From positions 16,019 to 80,018 of the forward strand of contig CAZXOA010000002.1 in assembly GCA_964642275.1 (NCBI GenBank): a DNA stretch of 64,000 nucleotides, read 5' to 3'. The translations under genes and the position numbers were made by a program. Of this stretch, positions 2,629 to 62,571 are shown in pieces (positions within the stretch are counted from its first letter, which is position 1; each line of letters starts with the position of its first letter). Below the pieces are notes generated by a model. That model did no database searches. It saw only the letters and a list, made by a program, of their open reading frames with translations, and was not told where the DNA came from. Source of the stretch: an uncultured Candidatus Saccharibacteria bacterium (lineage in GTDB: Bacteria; Patescibacteriota; Saccharimonadia; Saccharimonadales; JACDBH01).

Positions 2629-3297
2629 TCAGATCTGGTAACTCAGGTCGGCGTAAAAGATACCGTCAGTAGTGTCGATTAATTGGACCAGATCATACAT
2701 ACTTGGAATCATACTGGAATCTTTAAAATCAGGTTCTTTGAGCCAAATATTCTCGCCATTCCGAGCTGCGTGGACAAGTTTGCCAGAGTAACTATCGGCA
2801 AACAGAAGCGTAAAGTGCACAAAACTTTCTTGATCATTGCCCCGGAACAGCTTCACATAGCCAGTACCTCTCACTTGGAAGTTACAGCTGAGGCCCGTTC
2901 TATCCATAAAGGTCTGCTTTGCCGTTACGGTAATCTTCTCGTTGCCCTTGGGTTCTGCATGGGTAAATCCGATTTTTTCAAACATCGGCTGCGCAAGCCG
3001 TTTTCTGAGCAGCCAGCCGTCTTCTTCTGTTCTGAGGCACAACAGCATAACTGAGTGCGCCTGCTCAAGCAGCTCTTTTTTACTGAGAGTCACATTGATA
3101 CCTGCTACTCGTCCGAGCGGGGTAAGGCTATAGAGGCCGTCGTCAGTTTTGAAGACAAGCTTCTCTTTAATAAGTTGCTTTAAATGATACGTAAATACAT
3201 TGCTGTCGACATGCCTGGGTCTTAGATCGGCAAACCTCGCAGAATCGCTCAGTACAAGCCGGTAGAGAATATCCTTTTGTAGGTGGTGTTCCTGCAT
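2629..3297 (-). CDS. winged-helix DNA-binding protein with an uncharacterised C-terminal domain
   Basis: 222 aa. The N-terminus (ILYRLVLSDSARFADL...TYHLKQLIKEKLV) looks like an ArsR/MarR-type wHTH. Confidence 0.55.
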   Translation of the reverse strand: MQEHHLQKDILYRLVLSDSARFADLRPRHVDSNVFTYHLKQLIKEKLVFKTDDGLYSLTPLGRVAGINVTLSKKELLEQAHSVMLLCLRTEEDGWLLRKRLAQPMFEKIGFTHAEPKGNEKITVTAKQTFMDRTGLSCNFQVRGTGYVKLFRGNDQESFVHFTLLFADSYSGKLVHAARNGENIWLKEPDFKDSSMIPSMYDLVQLIDTTDGIFYADLSYQI

Positions 3298-3459
3298 CGT
3301 AGGTCAATTCTATTTGACTCAAAACACTAAGTCTAGAGAATCTACCTGTCGCACAGTATCGTTATGGGTGTAAGCAAAGACCGTCAAGGTAAATTTTACG
3401 TTGAGAGTTCTGAGCAAAGATCAATAATTAACAGCGCACAATAACTTAGGAGATAGAAA

Positions 3460-3723
3460 ATGATAGAACTGGGAGCCTCAGAGATCAAGCAGCTGGATGA
3501 TTTTGTGGCGGCCTTGGCTGACGTTAGGACACCTGATGATATGTTCCCGCCAGATCAGCCCGAGGGTGGTGTTCGCGAACCGCGTAATCCCGTAGTGCCG
3601 CCCATAATTGGTTGCGAGTGCATTAAGTTGGCTCGGGTTTATGATCTACAGGCAGCGCGCCAGCGGCAGTTGGGGCATAGCGCACTGCTGATGAGACAGA
3701 TAGATGAGCTGGTACCGGCCTAG
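3460..3723 (+). CDS. hypothetical protein (87 aa)
   Basis: AGGAG Shine-Dalgarno 7 nt upstream of the ATG. No recognisable domain. 4-nt convergent overlap with yajQ. Confidence 0.5.
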   Translation: MIELGASEIKQLDDFVAALADVRTPDDMFPPDQPEGGVREPRNPVVPPIIGCECIKLARVYDLQAARQRQLGHSALLMRQIDELVPA

Positions 3724-12069: not shown

Positions 12070-12123
12070 CCACGGGCCTCATCCGGACAGATATGCTAAC
12101 CTAGACGTGTATTAGGAGTGCTC

Positions 12124-12708
12124 ATGCGTAAGGTCATTCTTGCAAGTAAGTCGTGGCTCAGGGCTCAGATTCTTGAGAAGTCTGAGATTGAATATGTCAT
12201 AGCTGAATCACGCGTTGACGAAAGAGTACTTGAGACGGAATTAGAAGGCAAGGGCTTGGAAGACATTACTATTGCGATTGCTCGAGCCAAGGCCTTGGCA
12301 GTTGAAGCGGGTGATCAGGATGTCGTCATCGGAGCAGATACAGTTGCGTACGAAAAAGAATCAGGCAGAGTTTTTCATAAAGCTGAGACACCTGCGGAAG
12401 CCCTGAGCCTATGCATGCAGCAAAGCGGAGCAACCATAGTAGTCGTCACTGGCTTTGCTATCGTCAGGGATAAAGAGGTGCAAAAGGACGGTTTAAGTAC
12501 GACGGAAGTTACCTACAGCCAGTTTACTGAAGACACCCTAGCGAGCCTTCTCGCAAAGGATCATCGTACTACCGAACGCAATGCTGCACTTGGTTTCTTT
12601 ATTGATGCGCCTGGCTTTACGCTGGTGGAGCGTTTCGAGGGTTCGTATACAGGAGCGATGGGGTTACCGATGGAGCAGATACGTCCATTATTGAAGAATC
12701 TTAGCTAA
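12124..12708 (+). CDS. maf: Maf-like nucleoside triphosphate pyrophosphatase
   Basis: VILASKS...GADTVV-type Maf pattern. AGGAG lies 6 nt upstream of ATG 12124. Confidence 0.85.
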   Translation: MRKVILASKSWLRAQILEKSEIEYVIAESRVDERVLETELEGKGLEDITIAIARAKALAVEAGDQDVVIGADTVAYEKESGRVFHKAETPAEALSLCMQQSGATIVVVTGFAIVRDKEVQKDGLSTTEVTYSQFTEDTLASLLAKDHRTTERNAALGFFIDAPGFTLVERFEGSYTGAMGLPMEQIRPLLKNLS

Positions 12709-12723
12709 GAAGCTGTTTCTACT

Positions 12724-12746
12724 GGGCGGGTTGAGGCCCGCTTTCT
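12724..12746 (+). terminator. intrinsic terminator after maf
   Basis: GCGGG-ttgagg-CCCGC followed by TTTCT. Confidence 0.6.
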
Positions 12747-12793
12747 AAAATCTAACATCTGGAATCTATATTCTAGCCAGACCCTATCTTTTC

Positions 12794-12823
12794 ATTATAT
12801 CATACTACTTATGCTTTTGTCAA
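12794..12823 (-). promoter_or_regulatory. promoter TTGACA-18-TATAAT (copy of the dispersed repeat), antisense to the maf 3' end
   Basis: The minus strand reads AACTTGACAAAAGCATAAGTAGTATGATATAATGAAAAGATAGGGT. Confidence 0.5.
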
Positions 12824-12831
12824 GTTTTTTA

Positions 12832-12860
12832 TTGACTTCATCTGTAAAATGGGCTAAAAT
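12832..12860 (+). promoter_or_regulatory. sigma70-type promoter TTGACT-17-TAAAAT
   Basis: The hexamers and 17-nt spacer were read directly. It points into the gene-free structured region. Confidence 0.55.
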
Positions 12861-12910
12861 GATTCCACTTTGAGATGGAGTGAATACGCTCTCTCAAGGG
12901 GTTATTTAAC

Positions 12911-12925
12911 AAGGTGTAGAAGTAA
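12911..12925. repeat. left copy of a 15-bp perfect inverted repeat (AAGGTGTAGAAGTAA)
   Basis: The reverse complement occurs at 13579-13593. Confidence 0.9.
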
Positions 12926-13578
12926 ATATTTCTCTGAGATGACGAATTTTGCTGGTCAATTTTGGCCGATAGAATTCGTTATCTCAGACTATTGAGATAC
13001 AAGAGTTGAGCCTGAGCTCTTCTGGGTGTGTATGACCATCCAGAAACGTTGCTCGGTTCGCCCACAGCAGCTGCGCATGGATCCGTGTCAAGATCAACAC
13101 GGGGAGTGCGGCTGCTGAGGTCATCGAGGCGACTTGGATCTGCCCCACAAGGCAAATTAAAATGGGAAACCGCTTTAGTGATCTGAGAAGCCTCGTCCAT
13201 GTGCAAGCCGTGCGCTTTCCTCTCGAATGAGAGATGTGCTGCACGCTTGTATGTCTGCCAGAGCAGTCTGAGTACATCGGGGGACGTCCTCAAGTACTGC
13301 TCTGGCAGAAGATTTCTGTTGCCTGGCCACCCGTCCGGGTTGGGCGACAGAAAAGCTCGCGTAAGGCTTGTCCTCCCCCTCTCCACTAGGAGGATGAGTA
13401 CCTGCGCGAGCAGCCCTGGTGGACCGGAGGTCGTGGTTCACCTCCACGTAACCTGACCTCCGGTCCCGGGGCACTGAATTGATCGCGCAAGTGATTGATT
13501 TGTCCTAAAAGGCGAAAGAAAGGTTCTCATGGTTGAGATATTGGTCGTAGCTGCATTTTTGCGCTCCCAACACTCCCG

Positions 13579-13593
13579 TTACTTCTACACCTT
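13579..13593. repeat. right copy of the 15-bp perfect inverted repeat (TTACTTCTACACCTT)
   Basis: Reverse complement of 12911-12925. Confidence 0.9.
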
Positions 13594-13642
13594 TTCACAC
13601 CTTATCCGAATGCATAACCGCGGTTGTGGCTTCAGACAATGT

Positions 13643-13671
13643 GTGACAGACAATCTATGCCCGCGTATACT
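13643..13671 (+). promoter_or_regulatory. promoter GTGACA-17-TATACT, 8 nt before the ABC exporter ATG (leaderless-type)
   Basis: Hexamers and spacing read directly. Confidence 0.55.
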
Positions 13672-13679
13672 GAAAGTAT

Positions 13680-15452
13680 ATGAGGTATATTCTTCGGATT
13701 CTCCGGTTTACTGGAGTGCTGCGCTGGTACTACGTGGGTATTTCTGTCCTGACGGTGCTTGTTAGTGTCACGACAGTCGTGCTGCCGTTCCTGAGCGGCC
13801 AGGCAATTGACGAAATCAGCAAAGGCACGTCCGGCAATGTCAGGACCGTTGTTATCCTGGCGCTGCTTATCTTTGCCATGGATGTGCTGGCAAACTTCCT
13901 CAACAATATCAGCGGTTTCTTAGGCGATCAGTTATCGGCCAAAATGAACCAGATATTATCCAACCGCTACTTTGAGCATTTGCTGTCGCTGCCGCAACGG
14001 TTCTTTGATGTGTCGCTCAGCGGCAAGCTGGTAGGACGTCTTAACCGGTCGGTGAATCAGCTGAGCAATTTTGCGCAGATGGTCAGCAACAACTTTATGC
14101 AGTTTATTGTCAGCACCTTGCTGGCTCTCATTATCGTAGCGTTTTATAGCTGGCCGGTGGCACTGATGCTGGGCTCGTTGTATCCGCTGTATATCTGGCT
14201 GACGGTGCGGACCTCTGACAAATGGCAGAAGTACCAGAAAGAAAAGAACGAGAACTATGATATCGCCAGCGGCCGGTTCAATGAGGCTATCACGCAGGTT
14301 AAGGTGATAAAAAGCTTTAATCAAGAAGCTCGTGAGCTATTGTTCTTTCAGCGCTATATCGCAAAAGCTGTGCGCATCAACAAGCCGCAGAGTATCTACT
14401 GGCACGTGCGCGATGTGCGCCGCCGGCTGCTGCTGAACGTCATTTTTCTGGGTGTGTACCTGTATATCTTTGTCGATGCGGTGCACGGCAATATTTCGCC
14501 TGGTGCGGCGGTAGCGCTGATACTGTATGCCCAGCAGATTCGTATTCCGATATTTACCATCAGCTTTTTGGTGGACAGCACGCAGCGTGCGGTAGCCGAC
14601 AGCCGGGATTATTTTGAACTTATGGATGAGAAGCCGGAAATCAATGATGCCAGCGATGCTGCCGTTCTGAAGGTTAAAAAAGGCGGAATTACTTTTGACA
14701 AGGTATCGTTTGCCTACGATAAGACACCGGTAGTGCAGGATATTTCGTTTGAGATTGCGCCAGACAGCAAGGTGGCGCTGGTTGGCGAGAGCGGCGAGGG
14801 CAAGACCACGCTGACGAATCTGCTGCTGAGATTGTATGAACCAGGGGACGGAAAAATTCTTATTGACGGGCAAGATATTACCCGTGCAACACAGGCATCG
14901 CTCAGAGGTTCGATTGCGGTGGTGTTCCAGGAACCGGCGCTGTTCAGCGGCACCATTAACGAAAATATTTCATACGCCAACAAACAAGCGACACAAGAGC
15001 AGATAGAAGCGGCCGCAAAGGCGGCCAATGCCCACGAATTTATTGCAGCGCTGCCAAAAGGGTATGATACCGAAATTGGCGAGCGCGGGCTCAAGCTTTC
15101 TGGCGGGCAGAAGCAGCGTATCGCGATTGCGCGGGCGCTACTGAAAGACGCGCCGATTCTGATACTCGATGAGGCCACAAGCAGTCTGGACAGTCGGTCT
15201 GAGGCGCTGGTACAGGAGGCGCTGGAGCGGCTTATGAAAGGCCGCACCACTATTATTATTGCGCACCGGTTGAGCACTATCGCGGCAGTCGACCAGATCG
15301 TGACGCTCAAAGGCGGCCGGGTTGATGAAATCGGAAACCCGGCGAAGCTGGCAAAATCCGGCGGCATCTATGCCCAACTGCTCAAGCTGCAGTCACGTAC
15401 CCCGACCGACAGAACCAAGGAACAATTAGAAGAATTCGAAATAGCTGGCTAA
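13680..15452 (+). CDS. ABC transporter, fused permease/ATP-binding exporter (MsbA-like)
   Basis: Six-TM exporter domain followed by Walker A GESGEGKTT, signature LSGGQKQR and Walker B ILILDEATS. Confidence 0.95.
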   Translation: MRYILRILRFTGVLRWYYVGISVLTVLVSVTTVVLPFLSGQAIDEISKGTSGNVRTVVILALLIFAMDVLANFLNNISGFLGDQLSAKMNQILSNRYFEHLLSLPQRFFDVSLSGKLVGRLNRSVNQLSNFAQMVSNNFMQFIVSTLLALIIVAFYSWPVALMLGSLYPLYIWLTVRTSDKWQKYQKEKNENYDIASGRFNEAITQVKVIKSFNQEARELLFFQRYIAKAVRINKPQSIYWHVRDVRRRLLLNVIFLGVYLYIFVDAVHGNISPGAAVALILYAQQIRIPIFTISFLVDSTQRAVADSRDYFELMDEKPEINDASDAAVLKVKKGGITFDKVSFAYDKTPVVQDISFEIAPDSKVALVGESGEGKTTLTNLLLRLYEPGDGKILIDGQDITRATQASLRGSIAVVFQEPALFSGTINENISYANKQATQEQIEAAAKAANAHEFIAALPKGYDTEIGERGLKLSGGQKQRIAIARALLKDAPILILDEATSSLDSRSEALVQEALERLMKGRTTIIIAHRLSTIAAVDQIVTLKGGRVDEIGNPAKLAKSGGIYAQLLKLQSRTPTDRTKEQLEEFEIAG

Positions 15453-22615: not shown

Positions 22616-22713
22616 CCCTATAATTTGACCGATGAGGGAGAATTATATGCCGAACCAGAGTTACTCCATCTATAAAAGTCAGAGAGTAACGCTGCGTGAA
22701 GCTATATCTTCAC

Positions 22714-22732
22714 ATTATATCACACTTGTCAA
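22714..22732 (-). promoter_or_regulatory. dispersed repeat copy: ACTTGACA-N7-TATAAT with TGaTATAAT extended -10
   Basis: The minus strand reads TACTTGACAAGTGTGATATAATGTGAAGATATAGCT. Confidence 0.45.
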
Positions 22733-22823: not shown

Positions 22824-22912
22824 CCCCACGTAAACGTGGGTGCATATAATTCTCGCTTACCGCTCAAATTATCACTATTTACACCTGTTGATAAACTGTT
22901 TATGCTTGAGGT

Positions 22913-34668: not shown

Positions 34669-34758
34669 ATATCAGATAACCATAATTCGCTGGCAATGCA
34701 CCTTTGGTGGCTAAATGAGCATGCACCCTACATCGTGAGCGTGCTACCGTATCCTCTC

Positions 34759-34777
34759 ATTATATCACACCTGTCAA
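34759..34777 (-). promoter_or_regulatory. dispersed repeat copy: ACTTGACA-N7-TATAAT with TGaTATAAT extended -10
   Basis: The minus strand reads TACTTGACAGGTGTGATATAATGAGAGGATACGGTA. Confidence 0.45.
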
Positions 34778-59908: not shown

Positions 59909-60243
59909 TTTTCTTCCGTTCTTGTAGTCAAGAACCAACCCCTCTGTTACTTTTGATGGCAAAAGTAACCAAAACTACTGGGCCAAAATACCTCGTGACT
60001 CATCTGTATGCCAAAATCACAATGCCTCAGACAACTCCCTTTGGTCGGGCAGACAAGTTTCATAGTAGAGTTGTCTGCCTGAGTCTTCGGCAATAATTGT
60101 AATTATTGGCAACATCTGAATCAGGAGGTATTTTGATGCCCAGACCCGGAAAGCAGAAGCCCTGAATGGGCATTATTTATACACGGCCTATCGGCCGTGA
60201 AATGCGTGAAACAGGGGTGGATGAGCAAAAACGCTTGCAAAAC

Positions 60244-60263
60244 TTGACAATGTGTGGTATAAT
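60244..60263 (+). promoter_or_regulatory. dispersed repeat copy: ACTTGACA-N8-TATAAT with TGgTATAAT extended -10
   Basis: The plus strand reads AACTTGACAATGTGTGGTATAATGAGAGGATAGGGTG. Confidence 0.5.
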
Positions 60264-60313
60264 GAGAGGATAGGGTGTGTTTTTGAGCTAACACCGCTCC
60301 ACCCCCTGTACAT

Positions 60314-60327
60314 TGACAGAGTAGTGT
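60314..60327. repeat. left copy of a 14-bp perfect inverted repeat (TGACAGAGTAGTGT)
   Basis: The reverse complement occurs at 60799-60812. Confidence 0.9.
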
Positions 60328-60414
60328 TATTCCAGATTGACTAAGAGATCATATTTTTGTGGTTTGTTAGTCGATCTGGAAGGTTTCCATGATTTAGACT
60401 CCTCGGGAGGGGAA

Positions 60415-60639
60415 ATGAACTGGATTACTGTCGCAGTGATTATCTGCCTCACATGCGTGGCTGTCGCCACAGACATGTTACAAACTCTCGACCATGGGGG
60501 GTGTTCTGTCAGTCGCAAGGTCAGGAGATGGATTCTCGTCCTTTCACCCCTCTGGGTTGCGTTGGGAATCCTGCTCGTGATCGGTCTCATCTTGGAAAGA
60601 GTCCAAGAGAAAACCACCAGCTTCTTCACCGACCGGTGA
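60415..60639 (+). CDS. small two-TM hypothetical protein (74 aa), embedded in a structured non-coding-looking locus
   Basis: GGGAGGGG Shine-Dalgarno 2 nt upstream of ATG 60415. Two hydrophobic helices flank the loop SRKVRRW. The region also carries shadow ORFs on both strands, so coding status is uncertain. Confidence 0.4.
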   Translation: MNWITVAVIICLTCVAVATDMLQTLDHGGCSVSRKVRRWILVLSPLWVALGILLVIGLILERVQEKTTSFFTDR

Positions 60640-60686
60640 AGTAGTAAATTGATGAGCTGTGATTTACATGGGGCTCCCAGAAGAGG

Positions 60687-60704
60687 CGATTCATTAATGA
60701 ATCG
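60687..60704. repeat. 18-nt perfect palindrome CGATTCATTAATGAATCG
   Basis: Read directly. It sits at the tip of a longer GGGG...CCCC imperfect hairpin. Confidence 0.9.
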
Positions 60705-60798
60705 AACTTGCTTCTACCCCAGGGTGGTACTGAGACTTTGAAGGACTTGGTCTTTCGATTTTCTTTACCTTACACCCTCAACCCTGCGCCCTTTCCTC

Positions 60799-60812
60799 AC
60801 ACTACTCTGTCA
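60799..60812. repeat. right copy of the 14-bp perfect inverted repeat (ACACTACTCTGTCA)
   Basis: Reverse complement of 60314-60327. Confidence 0.9.
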
Positions 60813-60871
60813 TCTCACCAGAAAGTTTAAGAGTCTTTGTTGAACTTTGTGATGAGATTACATAAACAGCA

Positions 60872-60900
60872 CCCCGGCCAATGCCGGGGTTTCTGCTTTT
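60872..60900 (+). terminator. intrinsic terminator closing the 60.2-60.9 kb locus
   Basis: CCCCGGC-caat-GCCGGGG followed by TTTCTGCTTTT. Confidence 0.75.
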
Positions 60901-61210
60901 GTCCCGGCTTTCAGGAATCTGATTTGTCAGTGGCTATTCGGCTAGTTAGGTATATGTCACGAGGACTGTTTGAGACCGTTCAAGTCGAGTTTCACAGCGA
61001 CAAATTAGCCGGATAGACATCTGACAAGTCATGATTACTGAACCGCCGGTCAGGCTTTTGGCTTCTTTTCTGCTGAATCAGAAAAGAAGCGACTTGGTTC
61101 TTGGTCTCAAGAGCATCTATGAAAGGATTCCTTATCTAAGGAACAAGAGAGAGTTTAGTTTTTCACCAGAAGAACATAAGATTGCTTGAGGTTTGCGGTG
61201 AGAGAGGCGG

Positions 61211-61216
61211 TATACT
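61211..61216 (+). promoter_or_regulatory. -10 box TATACT 8 nt before the radA ATG
   Basis: gcggTATACTtagttcatATG. Confidence 0.5.
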
Positions 61217-61224
61217 TAGTTCAT

Positions 61225-62571
61225 ATGGCCAAAAAGGGAAGTATCAAGTACGTTTGCAACAGCTGCGGTGCAATGCATGGCTCGTGGATGGGCAAGTGTT
61301 CGGCGTGCGGCGAGTGGAACACGATAGTCGAACAGCTTGATAGCGCTGCTCTCATGGCGCCTGCTGGTCGTGCACTGCAGGCCACCGAAGCAAAAACACT
61401 CGCTGGTTCTAAGCAGCAGTCGCGTATTACTGCCGGCATTGCAACCGTCAACGAAGTGCTTGGCGGCGGTTTTGTGCCGGGTTCGGTCACGCTGATAGCC
61501 GGCCAGCCGGGTATTGGCAAGAGCACACTGCTTTTGCAGGTTGCCTACGAGGCGGCTCAGACAACCAAGGTGCTCTATATAAGCGGCGAGGAGTCAGTTC
61601 ACCAAGTGAGTCTGCGCGCCCAACGGCTTGGGGCTAATCATCAGAACTTATTGCTGGCTTCAAGTACTTCGACTGATGACATTGCTGCTACTATTGCCGC
61701 CGCCGAACAGTCACTGGTTGTTGTTGACTCGGTCCAGACGATATCAGTTGGCGCAGTGTCATCTGCGGCCGGTTCGGTCAGCCAGATTACCAACAGCACG
61801 CAGATGCTCATGCAGGCAGCCAAAACATCTAATACGGCACTGCTTCTGGTAGGGCATGTGACCAAAGAGGGTTCGATTGCCGGGCCAAAAGTGCTTGAGC
61901 ATGTGGTTGATGTGGTACTGCAGCTCGAGGGTGATCGTTATGGCGGGTTTAAGATACTTAGAAGCGTCAAGAATCGGTTTGGGAGTACGCATGAGTCGGC
62001 GATATTCGAGATGAAAGAAGAGGGCTTGATACCTGTCGAGAATCCGTCTGCATCGCTCCTCGAAGAGCGGCAGGTGAGCGACGGCTCGGTTGTGCTTGCG
62101 ACGGTCGAGGGCGCCCGCCCGCTTCTTGTCGAGGTGCAGGCACTGGTCAACACGACTGCGTACGGCTACCCTAAACGAACTGCCAGCGGCTACGATATCA
62201 ACAGGCTCAACCTGCTCGTGGCCATGCTCGAGAAACGCACCAAACTACAGCTGTCTGACAAAGACATTTATCTCAACATTGTCGGCGGTCTTAAGATTAC
62301 CGAGCCGGCAGCTGATTTAGCAGTCGCCATGGCAATTGCATCTGCATCAAAAGGCATGCAACTCAAGGATGATGCCGTGGTGTTTGGCGAACTCGGTCTG
62401 TCGGGCGAAATCCGCCGGGTGCCGTTTGCCGACAAACGTATTGCCGAGGCTAAGAAACTTGGGTTTAGCGGTGCTATTGTCCCAAAGAAAAGTACAGACA
62501 AGGCGTCGCGTGGCTTTGCGTACGAGGTAGCTGATATCAAATCTGCTCTCAATACATTCTTGAGTAAGTAG
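61225..62571 (+). CDS. radA: DNA repair protein RadA
   Basis: Zinc finger CNSCGA...CSACGEWN, Walker A GQPGIGKST, KNRFG and a Lon-like C-terminal domain. ATG lies 8 nt after TATACT. Confidence 0.95.
   Translation: MAKKGSIKYVCNSCGAMHGSWMGKCSACGEWNTIVEQLDSAALMAPAGRALQATEAKTLAGSKQQSRITAGIATVNEVLGGGFVPGSVTLIAGQPGIGKSTLLLQVAYEAAQTTKVLYISGEESVHQVSLRAQRLGANHQNLLLASSTSTDDIAATIAAAEQSLVVVDSVQTISVGAVSSAAGSVSQITNSTQMLMQAAKTSNTALLLVGHVTKEGSIAGPKVLEHVVDVVLQLEGDRYGGFKILRSVKNRFGSTHESAIFEMKEEGLIPVENPSASLLEERQVSDGSVVLATVEGARPLLVEVQALVNTTAYGYPKRTASGYDINRLNLLVAMLEKRTKLQLSDKDIYLNIVGGLKITEPAADLAVAMAIASASKGMQLKDDAVVFGELGLSGEIRRVPFADKRIAEAKKLGFSGAIVPKKSTDKASRGFAYEVADIKSALNTFLSK

Follow-up and report, generated by a model that had tools for sequence, protein, structure and literature searches.

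In a 64,000-nucleotide stretch of DNA from an uncultured Candidatus Saccharibacteria bacterium (hereafter the window, with positions counted from its first letter), the spacer that separates maf (12118-12708, Pfam Maf) from an ABC exporter gene (13680-15452) contains no credible gene. We conclude that this gap is probably an independent transcription unit for a large, stable, end-clamped non-coding RNA (ncRNA) that matches no described family. Judged by sequence comparison, the structured RNA locus is real and conserved and very probably transcribed, and the unit looks like a new class of large bacterial ncRNA. An initial annotation, made from the letters of the sequence, had offered a large structured RNA of unknown class as one of two explanations. 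This is now supported by homologous spacers, by covarying helices, by the absence of a coding signal and by the absence of an Rfam match. Saccharibacteria genomes are about 1 Mb in size and have very short intergenic spacers. In such compact genomes almost 1 kb of conserved, structured non-coding DNA with a promoter is costly and presumably useful.

Architecture of the unit

The limits initially given for the unit, 12867-13600, are slightly too small: it begins with the promoter at 12832 and includes a conserved 3' hairpin that ends at 13646. All its parts lie on the + strand. The predicted primary transcript is about 780-790 nt long, with about 683 nt lying within the closing helix. The core had also been described as GC-rich. 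This holds in comparison with the promoter flank (0.50-0.62 in the core, 0.29-0.41 in the flank) and fails in comparison with the neighbouring genes, than which the core (0.52 overall) is no richer.

The promoter already recognised at 12832-12860 is confirmed. It is of the sigma-70 type (TTGACT-17-TAAAAT), matches the consensus at 10 of 12 positions and has a predicted transcription start site at about 12867. A -10-like box (TATTAT, TATAAT, TACAAT and similar) is found at the matching place in every homologous unit. The promoter is followed by a 5'-terminal two-tier hairpin (12868-12899) with an outer stem CUUUGAGA/UCUCAAGG and an inner stem GAGU/GCUC. The family consensus of this hairpin is GGUYGAGY-loop-GCUCCC, a motif discernible in most members, and it corresponds to helix 1 of the RNAalifold structure of alignment A4, where it is 100% paired with one pair changed on both sides. 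A linker, GGUUAUUUAAC (12900-12910), leads to the long-range closing helix, P1; few sequences of the family are as well conserved as the UUUAAC(A) immediately 5' of P1. The two strands of P1, AAGGUGUAGAAGUAA (12911-12925) and UUACUUCUACACCUU (13579-13593), form the perfect 15-bp inverted repeat that was noticed initially and that we also find. By our own estimate, about 5e-4 perfect 15-mer inverted repeats would be expected by chance within a 1-kb gap.

Straight after the 5' strand of P1 comes a long hairpin, H1 (12927-12999), composed of a 19-bp and a 6-bp stem and closed at its base by a further 6-bp stem (12927-12932/12994-12999). It occurs at the same position in the folds of the dissected relatives and in a second frame elsewhere in the window. 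The interior array (13003-13522) consists of about ten hairpin domains whose position is kept but whose sequence is not (13008-13059, 13060-13121, 13125-13195, 13201-13252 and 13254-13309, followed by 13313-13353, 13355-13411, 13413-13472, 13476-13501 and 13502-13513). The stems listed in the initial annotation are all real and mostly longer than claimed: 12933-12951/12970-12988 has 19 bp plus a 6-bp tip (16 bp had been claimed), 13065-13076/13106-13117 has 12 bp and encloses a 7-bp stem (13082-13088/13097-13103), 13254-13267/13296-13309 is a perfect 14-bp stem and 13421-13432/13455-13466 a perfect one of 12 bp.

Just before the 3' strand of P1 lies the 3' module (13524-13575), a multi-tier hairpin (GGUUGAGAUAU..GUCGUAGC-loop-GCGCUCCCAACACUC) similar to the 5' hairpin. 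Its outer stem covaries, and in the clade of the window it takes the form GGUUGAGAUAUAAGUUGAGCC-loop-GCUCCUGACACUCCC. R1, a covariance model built for the 3' domain, matches 13524-13640 with 88.7 bits and an E value of 1e-17 (the same sequence was part of the alignment from which R1 was built). The unit ends with an extended 3' hairpin (13595-13646, UCACAC..CAUAACC-GC-GGUUGUG..GUGUGA). In some homologues (L022-24, L037 and L041; loci of relatives are designated by an L and a number) this hairpin is followed by a U-run and constitutes an intrinsic terminator. The promoter of the ABC exporter gene, GTGACA-17-TATACT (13643-13671, + strand), stands 8 nt before the ATG at 13680 and its -35 box overlaps the 3' arm of the hairpin.

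These parts suggest how the RNA might be organised. Transcription would start near 12867 from the TTGACT-17-TAAAAT promoter, the RNA would open with the two-tier 5' hairpin as a protective structure, P1 would join both ends and the extended hairpin would terminate the molecule. H1 would lie just inside the 5' strand of P1 and the 3' module just inside its 3' strand, so that the termini would stay structured even if a double-strand-specific nuclease were to cut P1. Between these parts of the frame the approximately ten hairpins would have fixed places while their sequences and lengths are free. We infer that the frame acts as an end clamp shielding both termini and possibly as a site of double-strand processing, comparable to the stems on either side of ribosomal RNA (rRNA). 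The RNA would be very stable, and its double-stranded arms could work largely independently of their sequence, for instance by binding proteins as a scaffold or a decoy. The two-tier hairpins, which resemble each other, are candidates for repeated sites of protein binding.

Fold stability and strand

The structure of the region is beyond chance. On the + strand 12900-13605 folds to -337.9 kcal/mol compared with -230.7 +/- 7.7 kcal/mol for dinucleotide shuffles (z -13.85); the minus strand of the same segment folds to -293.4 kcal/mol. A sliding fold scan regressed on GC content identifies the gap as the most structured 683-nt stretch of the 64 kb, with a residual of -106 kcal/mol (z -6.7 against 186 other scan positions). 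Orthologous spacers also fold below their shuffles (z -11.2 for L002 and -8.0 for L003). In all 22 members compared, the + strand folds better than the - strand, by 5-54 kcal/mol, and the promoters, together with the terminators present in some homologues, are on the + strand.

Covariation

For P1 we aligned 22 members, anchored on a conserved A-G step. Paired cells amount to 84.2%, compared with 64.1% when partners are shuffled and 31-46% after a shift of the partner strand by 1-3 columns. Changes on both sides are seen in 13 of the 15 pairs and in 77 cells (27.6 in shuffles), and the covariation score of 0.614, compared with 0.236 for shuffled partners, was reached by none of 500 shuffles. 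The leading T of the region, like the A and the G of that step, varies hardly or not at all. The 3' domain is 92.8% paired. Its helix 3, the 3' hairpin, is 98.4% paired, with 7 of 14 pairs changed on both sides and with a U·G pair that is invariant in 9 of 9 sequences; this invariant wobble argues for pairing of RNA on the + strand.

The closest clade (the window, L091/L098 and L092, whose ABC proteins are 80-81% identical) allows the interior to be followed as well. RNAalifold predicts 177 pairs, which are 93.3% paired in these four sequences, and 51 of the 177 are changed on both sides compared with 25.5 +/- 3.4 in shuffles. Twelve hairpin domains follow one another in identical order in the window, L091 and L092. 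Most of the interior domains are only 5-18% identical in the three-way comparison and are unequal in length, and better conservation (37-54% identity) is found in H1, in the short hairpin 13476-13501 and in the 3' module. H1 keeps 23 of its 26 pairs among the three sequences, four of them changed on both sides, and as helix 3 of the RNAalifold structure it is 97% paired. A clear example of compensation is the helix 13125-13130/13190-13195, which reads CGAGGC/GCCUCG in the window and CGGGGUG/CACCCCG in the relatives, with conserved junctions (GUCAUCG and GUCCAUG) around it. Another helix base, CUGCCA/UGGCAG, is common to the window and L091. A structure that is held while its sequence is lost does not behave like a neutral relic. 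Between clades the alignment of the interior with MAFFT fails because the hairpins share no sequence, and covariation of the interior is therefore documented in the closest clade only.

The family and its neighbour, the ABC exporter gene

Orthologues of the ABC exporter are present in metagenome-assembled genomes of Saccharibacteria, which places the window in this group (TM7/CPR). A metagenome scan supplied 80 further ABC-orthologous loci, and a protein search together with contigs supplied closer ones with 76-95% ABC identity. When relatives were sought by way of Maf, the best was a 68%-identical Maf on a contig that stops 50 nt past the gene. The initial annotation had proposed collecting the maf-to-ABC spacers of related genomes, and the result is that homologous structured units do exist and that their helices covary. 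They adjoin the ABC orthologue in contigs from genomes, metagenomes and Logan, at no fewer than 20 Saccharibacteria loci, with one unit per site except for two tandem pairs and always in the same orientation. The P1 stem could be mapped in about 22 elements and spans 348-1003 nt across the family; other loci show the 3' module alone. Most orthologous ABC loci have a short spacer before the ABC gene and no element.

The members share a common order of parts. A -10 box is followed after about 10-15 nt by the two-tier hairpin, a short linker with (U)UUAAC or UUGAC at its end, the P1 5' strand and H1. Then come the variable interior of 350-1000 nt, a hairpin module like the 5' one, a linker of about 10 nt, the 3' strand of P1 and the extended 3' hairpin. 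The earlier picture of the region is amended by this comparison: the conserved part is the terminal frame, the hairpins of the interior change rapidly in sequence, and elsewhere (for example, at 60235-60900) the frame may hold a small open reading frame (ORF).

In L095-L097 the whole element, including its promoter, is found downstream of the ABC gene and before a NUDIX gene. At most orthologue loci a -10 box that belongs to the ABC gene lies 8-12 nt ahead of the ATG, whether the element is present or absent, so that expression of the gene does not depend on the upstream promoter. The relocated element and the promoter that belongs to the ABC gene itself indicate that the element is an independent unit. 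The tandem frames are upstream of the ABC gene (2733-3262 and 3390-3927 in L027; about 3400-3460 and 3583-3930 in L036) and point to local duplication of the unit.

The start of the ABC exporter gene deserves a separate comment. In the window (13643-13680) and at most orthologue loci (L002-L102) the -10 box is TATACT, TACAAT or TATAAT and there is no Shine-Dalgarno sequence. The short distance of 8-12 nt from the -10 box to the ATG, combined with the lack of a Shine-Dalgarno sequence, suggests that the exporter is expressed from a leaderless or near-leaderless mRNA across Saccharibacteria.

Alternative explanations

Several observations weigh against a dedicated ncRNA. The excess of G·U over A·C in P1 is small (9 compared with 5), so P1 by itself is no proof of pairing at the RNA level rather than the DNA level. 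The statistics for the closest clade come from four sequences and from a structure derived from that very alignment. The interior is made of long, near-perfect stems with scant conserved sequence, unlike ribozyme-like or cage-forming RNAs with their conserved loops and junctions. Part of the conserved 3' sequence serves as the -35 box of the ABC promoter, and the 3' hairpin of the window has no U-run, so that read-through into the ABC gene is possible. Finally, paralogous and distant frames contain small ORFs. The frame is thus not specific to ncRNAs and the main unit could be a former mRNA.

The chief alternative makes the element part of the ABC mRNA, as a long, structured 5' leader and thus a cis-regulatory RNA that modulates termination or mRNA stability by way of read-through. 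The element is oriented like the ABC gene and in most loci is immediately upstream of it, the missing U-run in the window would permit read-through, and the 3' hairpin with its U-run in L022-24, L037 and L041 resembles a terminator or attenuator. We nevertheless regard such a leader as unlikely: with or without the element, a separate -10 box stands 8-12 nt ahead of the ABC start codon, most ABC orthologues have no element at all, in L095-L097 it lies downstream of the ABC gene and before a different gene, and the second frame of the window precedes radA.

A further connection to the ABC gene was considered. The tip of H1 (12952-12971) is complementary at 18 of 20 positions to 13933-13952 (nucleotides 254-273 of the ABC gene), for which we estimate a chance expectation of about 0.002. 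Conserved antisense regulation of the ABC gene by this tip is rejected, since relatives remain at background (14-16 of 20 matches); the complementarity is either lineage-specific or coincidental.

Rather improbable, too, is that the unit is what remains of a framed small-gene transcript which has lost its ORF, a degenerating remnant of a general expression or stability cassette. Frames of the same layout do hold ORFs preceded by a Shine-Dalgarno sequence (60415-60639 in the window, and others in L022-24, L027a, L036 and L037). Yet a z score of about -11 to -14 has been retained although the ABC proteins are only 76-81% identical, and the closest clade keeps its twelve hairpins, which a neutral remnant would lose. 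There is also no shared trace of a reading frame, and the interior is larger than in the ORF-bearing frames. As the origin of the unit such a transcript is possible, and it leaves the maintained structure unexplained.

The second explanation offered initially, a relic of a hairpin-ended element or of one bounded by terminal inverted repeats (TIRs), is not borne out. It would also include elements similar to miniature inverted-repeat transposable elements (MITEs). It draws on the 683-bp non-coding segment between perfect 15-bp inverted repeats, on the change of side relative to the ABC gene between lineages and on the tandem pairs in L027 and L036. The unit is single-copy in the window and syntenic. 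The proposed search for further copies of the 15-mer repeat returned just one chance match with three mismatches in the 64 kb, and R1 matches once there. In 736 kb of related loci R1 matches once at each locus, in every case on the strand of the ABC gene, and besides the divergent unit at 60235-60900 the window has no further frame. No target-site duplication is seen, the flanks being TTTAAC and TTCACA (...TTATTTAAC and TTCACACC...). The distal sequence of P1 varies with lineage through compensatory changes at a syntenic site and there is no common TIR, while the promoter, the 5' hairpin and the 3' hairpin are conserved yet lie outside the repeat. Neither is there a homologue on a viral contig. 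Two scans of viral contigs with the conserved 3' motifs, run with phage association in mind, gave 0 matches and 98 chance matches, and none of 80 chance-match viral loci searched with R1 matches the model. A mobile origin is accordingly very unlikely.

Equally remote is an inverton or other DNA-level palindrome, in which the repeats would be recombination sites or form cruciform DNA. A segment flanked by inverted repeats beside promoters would fit, recombination between repeats would keep the arms identical and the excess of G·U in P1 is slight. Against this, the interior is oriented alike in all 22 members, among them L091 and L098, which are near-identical contigs of different samples, and the ORFs and transfer RNA (tRNA)-like modules of relatives are always on the + strand. 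Stability is biased to the + strand in all 22, invariant U·G pairs occur in the adjacent hairpin, and no recombinase is encoded among the neighbours checked (pheT, DUF2207, maf, ABC and NUDIX). An integron attC site was rejected as well. The TTTAAC on the 5' side recalls RYYYAAC, but the 3' side reads CCTGTTTCA, not GTTRRRY, and the repeats enclose cargo rather than form a compact attC.

A decayed protein-coding gene can be practically dismissed. The gap (12709-13679) is gene-free, as first described: it contains nothing but short ORFs, the longest of up to 135 amino acids, which overlap on both strands and lack Shine-Dalgarno sequences. A Pfam search of all gap ORFs gave no match, and six-frame tblastn of the gap peptides against the homologous spacers, a check for a decayed gene of the kind that had been advised, revealed no protein-level conservation. 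The few tblastn matches are on the nucleotide-conserved ends, in all frames and on both strands, and the spurious ORFs vary from genome to genome. No frame-consistent similarity to homologues or to known families was found, and protein gene and pseudogene were both rejected.

Comparison with known RNA families and systems

The comparison with Rfam that the initial annotation had recommended for the gap was made with Rfam 15 for the whole window. There was no match at gathering score to RNase P, tmRNA, SRP RNA, 6S RNA or a group II intron, which agrees with the earlier inspection, nor was there a tRNA, an rRNA or any other Rfam family. OLE, GOLLD, ROOL, HEARO, raiA, group I introns and self-cleaving ribozymes likewise do not reach their gathering thresholds. 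At E <= 10, the region 12600-13800 returns merely sub-threshold microRNA-type hairpins. ARAGORN finds no tRNA or tmRNA in the window. Rfam searches of relatives, covering 17 loci at gathering score and nine at E <= 1, detect tRNA only. A group II intron was rejected on three grounds: even a permissive Rfam search gives no match in the region, the 5' ends differ across the family (AAGGUG, AGACGU and AGGUAU), and the unit, which has its own promoter, does not interrupt a gene. In the literature we found no description of a large ncRNA of this sort in Saccharibacteria or Patescibacteria.

The closest parallels are OLE, GOLLD and ROOL, large 'ornate' ncRNAs of bacteria. The variable regions of GOLLD are reported to include a tRNA-like module, and such a module is also carried by distant members of our family (L022-24). 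OLE, GOLLD and ROOL have the Rfam accessions RF01071, RF01998 and RF03087 and have been studied by cryo-electron microscopy (PMC12286853). In common with them the unit measures 0.5-0.8 kb, has many helices, forms its own transcription unit and is confined to a single lineage. It differs in that no covariance-model match appears even at E <= 10, in that its helices are long and near-perfect with freely turning over sequence, and in that conservation resides in the terminal frame, not in loops making tertiary contacts. In addition, paralogous frames can hold ORFs, and the two viral-contig scans found no association with phage.

The leader of the unit invites a different comparison. In rRNA operons a boxB hairpin precedes boxA, and boxC, which comes after boxA, is part of a long-range RNase III processing stem in which the two sides of 16S and of 23S rRNA pair; the boxA of Escherichia coli is UGCUCUUUAACAA. 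In these operons and in many CRISPR arrays boxA shields long untranslated transcripts from Rho (PMC7665894), and the boxA of Aquifex is GGCUCCUUGGCA (PMC3177189). The leader of the unit is made of a hairpin with GCUC(C/U)(C/U)U.., then ..CUUUAACA directly 5' of P1. As a lead only, it may resemble a boxB-boxA antitermination leader, the reference being the boxA of Aquifex and E. coli and not that of the host itself; neither the window nor the collected loci contain rRNA genes for comparison with a native boxA. As in rrn leaders, a hairpin is followed by a GCUC(C/U)..UUUAACA-like motif and then by the 5' strand of a long-range helix, and as in rrn processing stems the partner strand is found hundreds of nucleotides downstream, beyond a long untranslated RNA. 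The rationale would also be the same as for rrn and CRISPR leaders: long untranslated transcripts need protection from Rho. Unlike these systems, the unit contains no rRNA or CRISPR, its P1 is just 10-15 bp long, and its match to boxA is partial and lies partly within helices.

Type I toxin mRNAs fold back from 5' to 3' end, through the fbi element of hok/sok or the long-distance interaction of aapA1/IsoA1. The unit resembles hok-type mRNAs in being highly structured and in the pairing of its 5' region with its 3' region across hundreds of nucleotides, and the paralogous frame at 60235-60900 holds a small hydrophobic ORF with two transmembrane segments. It departs from them in that the main unit has no ORF preceded by a Shine-Dalgarno sequence and no evident antisense RNA gene, and the cargo ORFs of relatives are mostly zinc-ribbon mini-proteins, not hydrophobic peptides. 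A type I toxin-antitoxin mRNA was rejected for the main unit because it lacks such an ORF; the second frame has an ORF preceded by a Shine-Dalgarno sequence at 60415-60639. As for MITEs, the similarity lies in a sub-kilobase non-coding segment between short perfect inverted repeats, and the differences are a single copy, synteny across deep divergence, no target-site duplication, covarying repeats and conserved modules outside them.

If transcribed, the unit would add a new class to OLE, GOLLD, ROOL and raiA, in a phylum with almost no known RNA biology. Its design is unusual, with a conserved terminal frame around rapidly evolving double-stranded arms, and the family provides a natural test of how RNA structure is retained despite loss of sequence. 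The ORF-bearing paralogues suggest that 5'-3' clamping of transcripts may be general in these epibionts. Culture together with the host is possible for some Saccharibacteria, and the function might be directly testable if such a strain carries a member.

The second frame and the cargo of relatives

A second, paralogous frame (60235-60900, + strand) is located upstream of radA (61186-62571). Its fold has a z score of -8.1, and the gap in which it lies was flagged by the GC-regressed sliding fold scan. It consists, all on the + strand, of a promoter (60235-60263), a two-tier 5' hairpin (60273-60305), a perfect 14-bp P1 (60314-60327/60799-60812), H1 (60330-60381), an orphan ORF of 74 amino acids with two transmembrane segments and a strong Shine-Dalgarno sequence (60415-60639), a 3' hairpin (60813-60857) and an intrinsic terminator (60871-60900). 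No homologue of the ORF was found among 5.8 billion proteins.

We also scanned for frames with a simple rule, which required the hairpin motif and, 250-1250 nt downstream, a perfect partner of 11 nt. In the window this recovers only the main unit and the second frame (at 60285), and overall these two and five others compared with one match in the control. The recovery indicates that the frame is a reusable architecture, of which the main unit is the largest, purely non-coding form.

The cargo differs between members. Hairpins only are found inside L047, L085, L083, L033, L011, L012 and L003 and in the clade of the window. In L022-24 a tRNA-like module comes directly after the 5' strand of P1 (L022:3415-3493, L023:3424-3501 and L024:3411-3489). 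The module scores 49.9 bits with the Rfam tRNA model in L022; its anticodon stem is extended, and ARAGORN assigns it a 4-nt 'anticodon' (gaat) and an odd anticodon loop. The module is followed in the interior of these three loci by a conserved ORF of 48 amino acids preceded by a Shine-Dalgarno sequence. Frames in L027 (L027a, 3030-3182), L036 (3671-3841) and L037 (3706-3828) contain cysteine-rich zinc-ribbon ORFs of 40-56 amino acids, again preceded by a Shine-Dalgarno sequence, with CxxC pairs, some of them in the CxxCxGxG form known from the zinc finger of DnaJ. No Pfam family is matched significantly by the small cargo ORFs of relatives.

It is possible, and we offer it tentatively, that the frame is a hitherto undescribed modular Saccharibacteria cassette for ultra-stable or specially processed transcripts, with interchangeable cargo (hairpin arrays of 0.5-0.7 kb, tRNA-like modules and orphan mini-ORFs); the main unit would then be its non-coding extreme. 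By analogy with rRNA, such a cassette might perhaps combine Nus-type antitermination with double-strand processing.

The second frame lies in a gap of 1.28 kb, and the remainder of this gap (59909-60235 and 60900-61185) is also rich in hairpins. It includes a 40-nt inverted repeat that is 75% complementary (59984-60023/60096-60135), a 19-nt imperfect repeat (59920-59938/61094-61112) that brackets the entire gap and, at about 60125-60164, a mini-ORF of nine codons after AGGAGG.

Other promoter-like sequences in the window

An extended -10 motif, GTRTGRTATAATG (+ strand CATTATATCAYAC), occurs in four copies (12794-12823 on the - strand, 22713-22725, 34758-34770 and 60252-60264), where 0.14 would be expected by chance. 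The copy at 60252-60264 is predicted to drive the second frame. The one at 12794-12823 belongs to a perfect TTGACA-18-TATAAT promoter on the - strand, back-to-back with the promoter of the main unit; it faces antisense into the 3' end of maf and is kept in L091/L098. Within a 297-bp intergenic gap, a 31-nt inverted repeat (22620-22650/22842-22872, 87% complementary) surrounds a segment of 191 bp, and each of its arms is promoter-like (TTGAC/GC..N15..TTATAT). Just downstream of this repeat, at 22877-22890, is the sequence TTTACACCTGTTGA, which resembles the 3' strand of P1 in elements of the L002 type.

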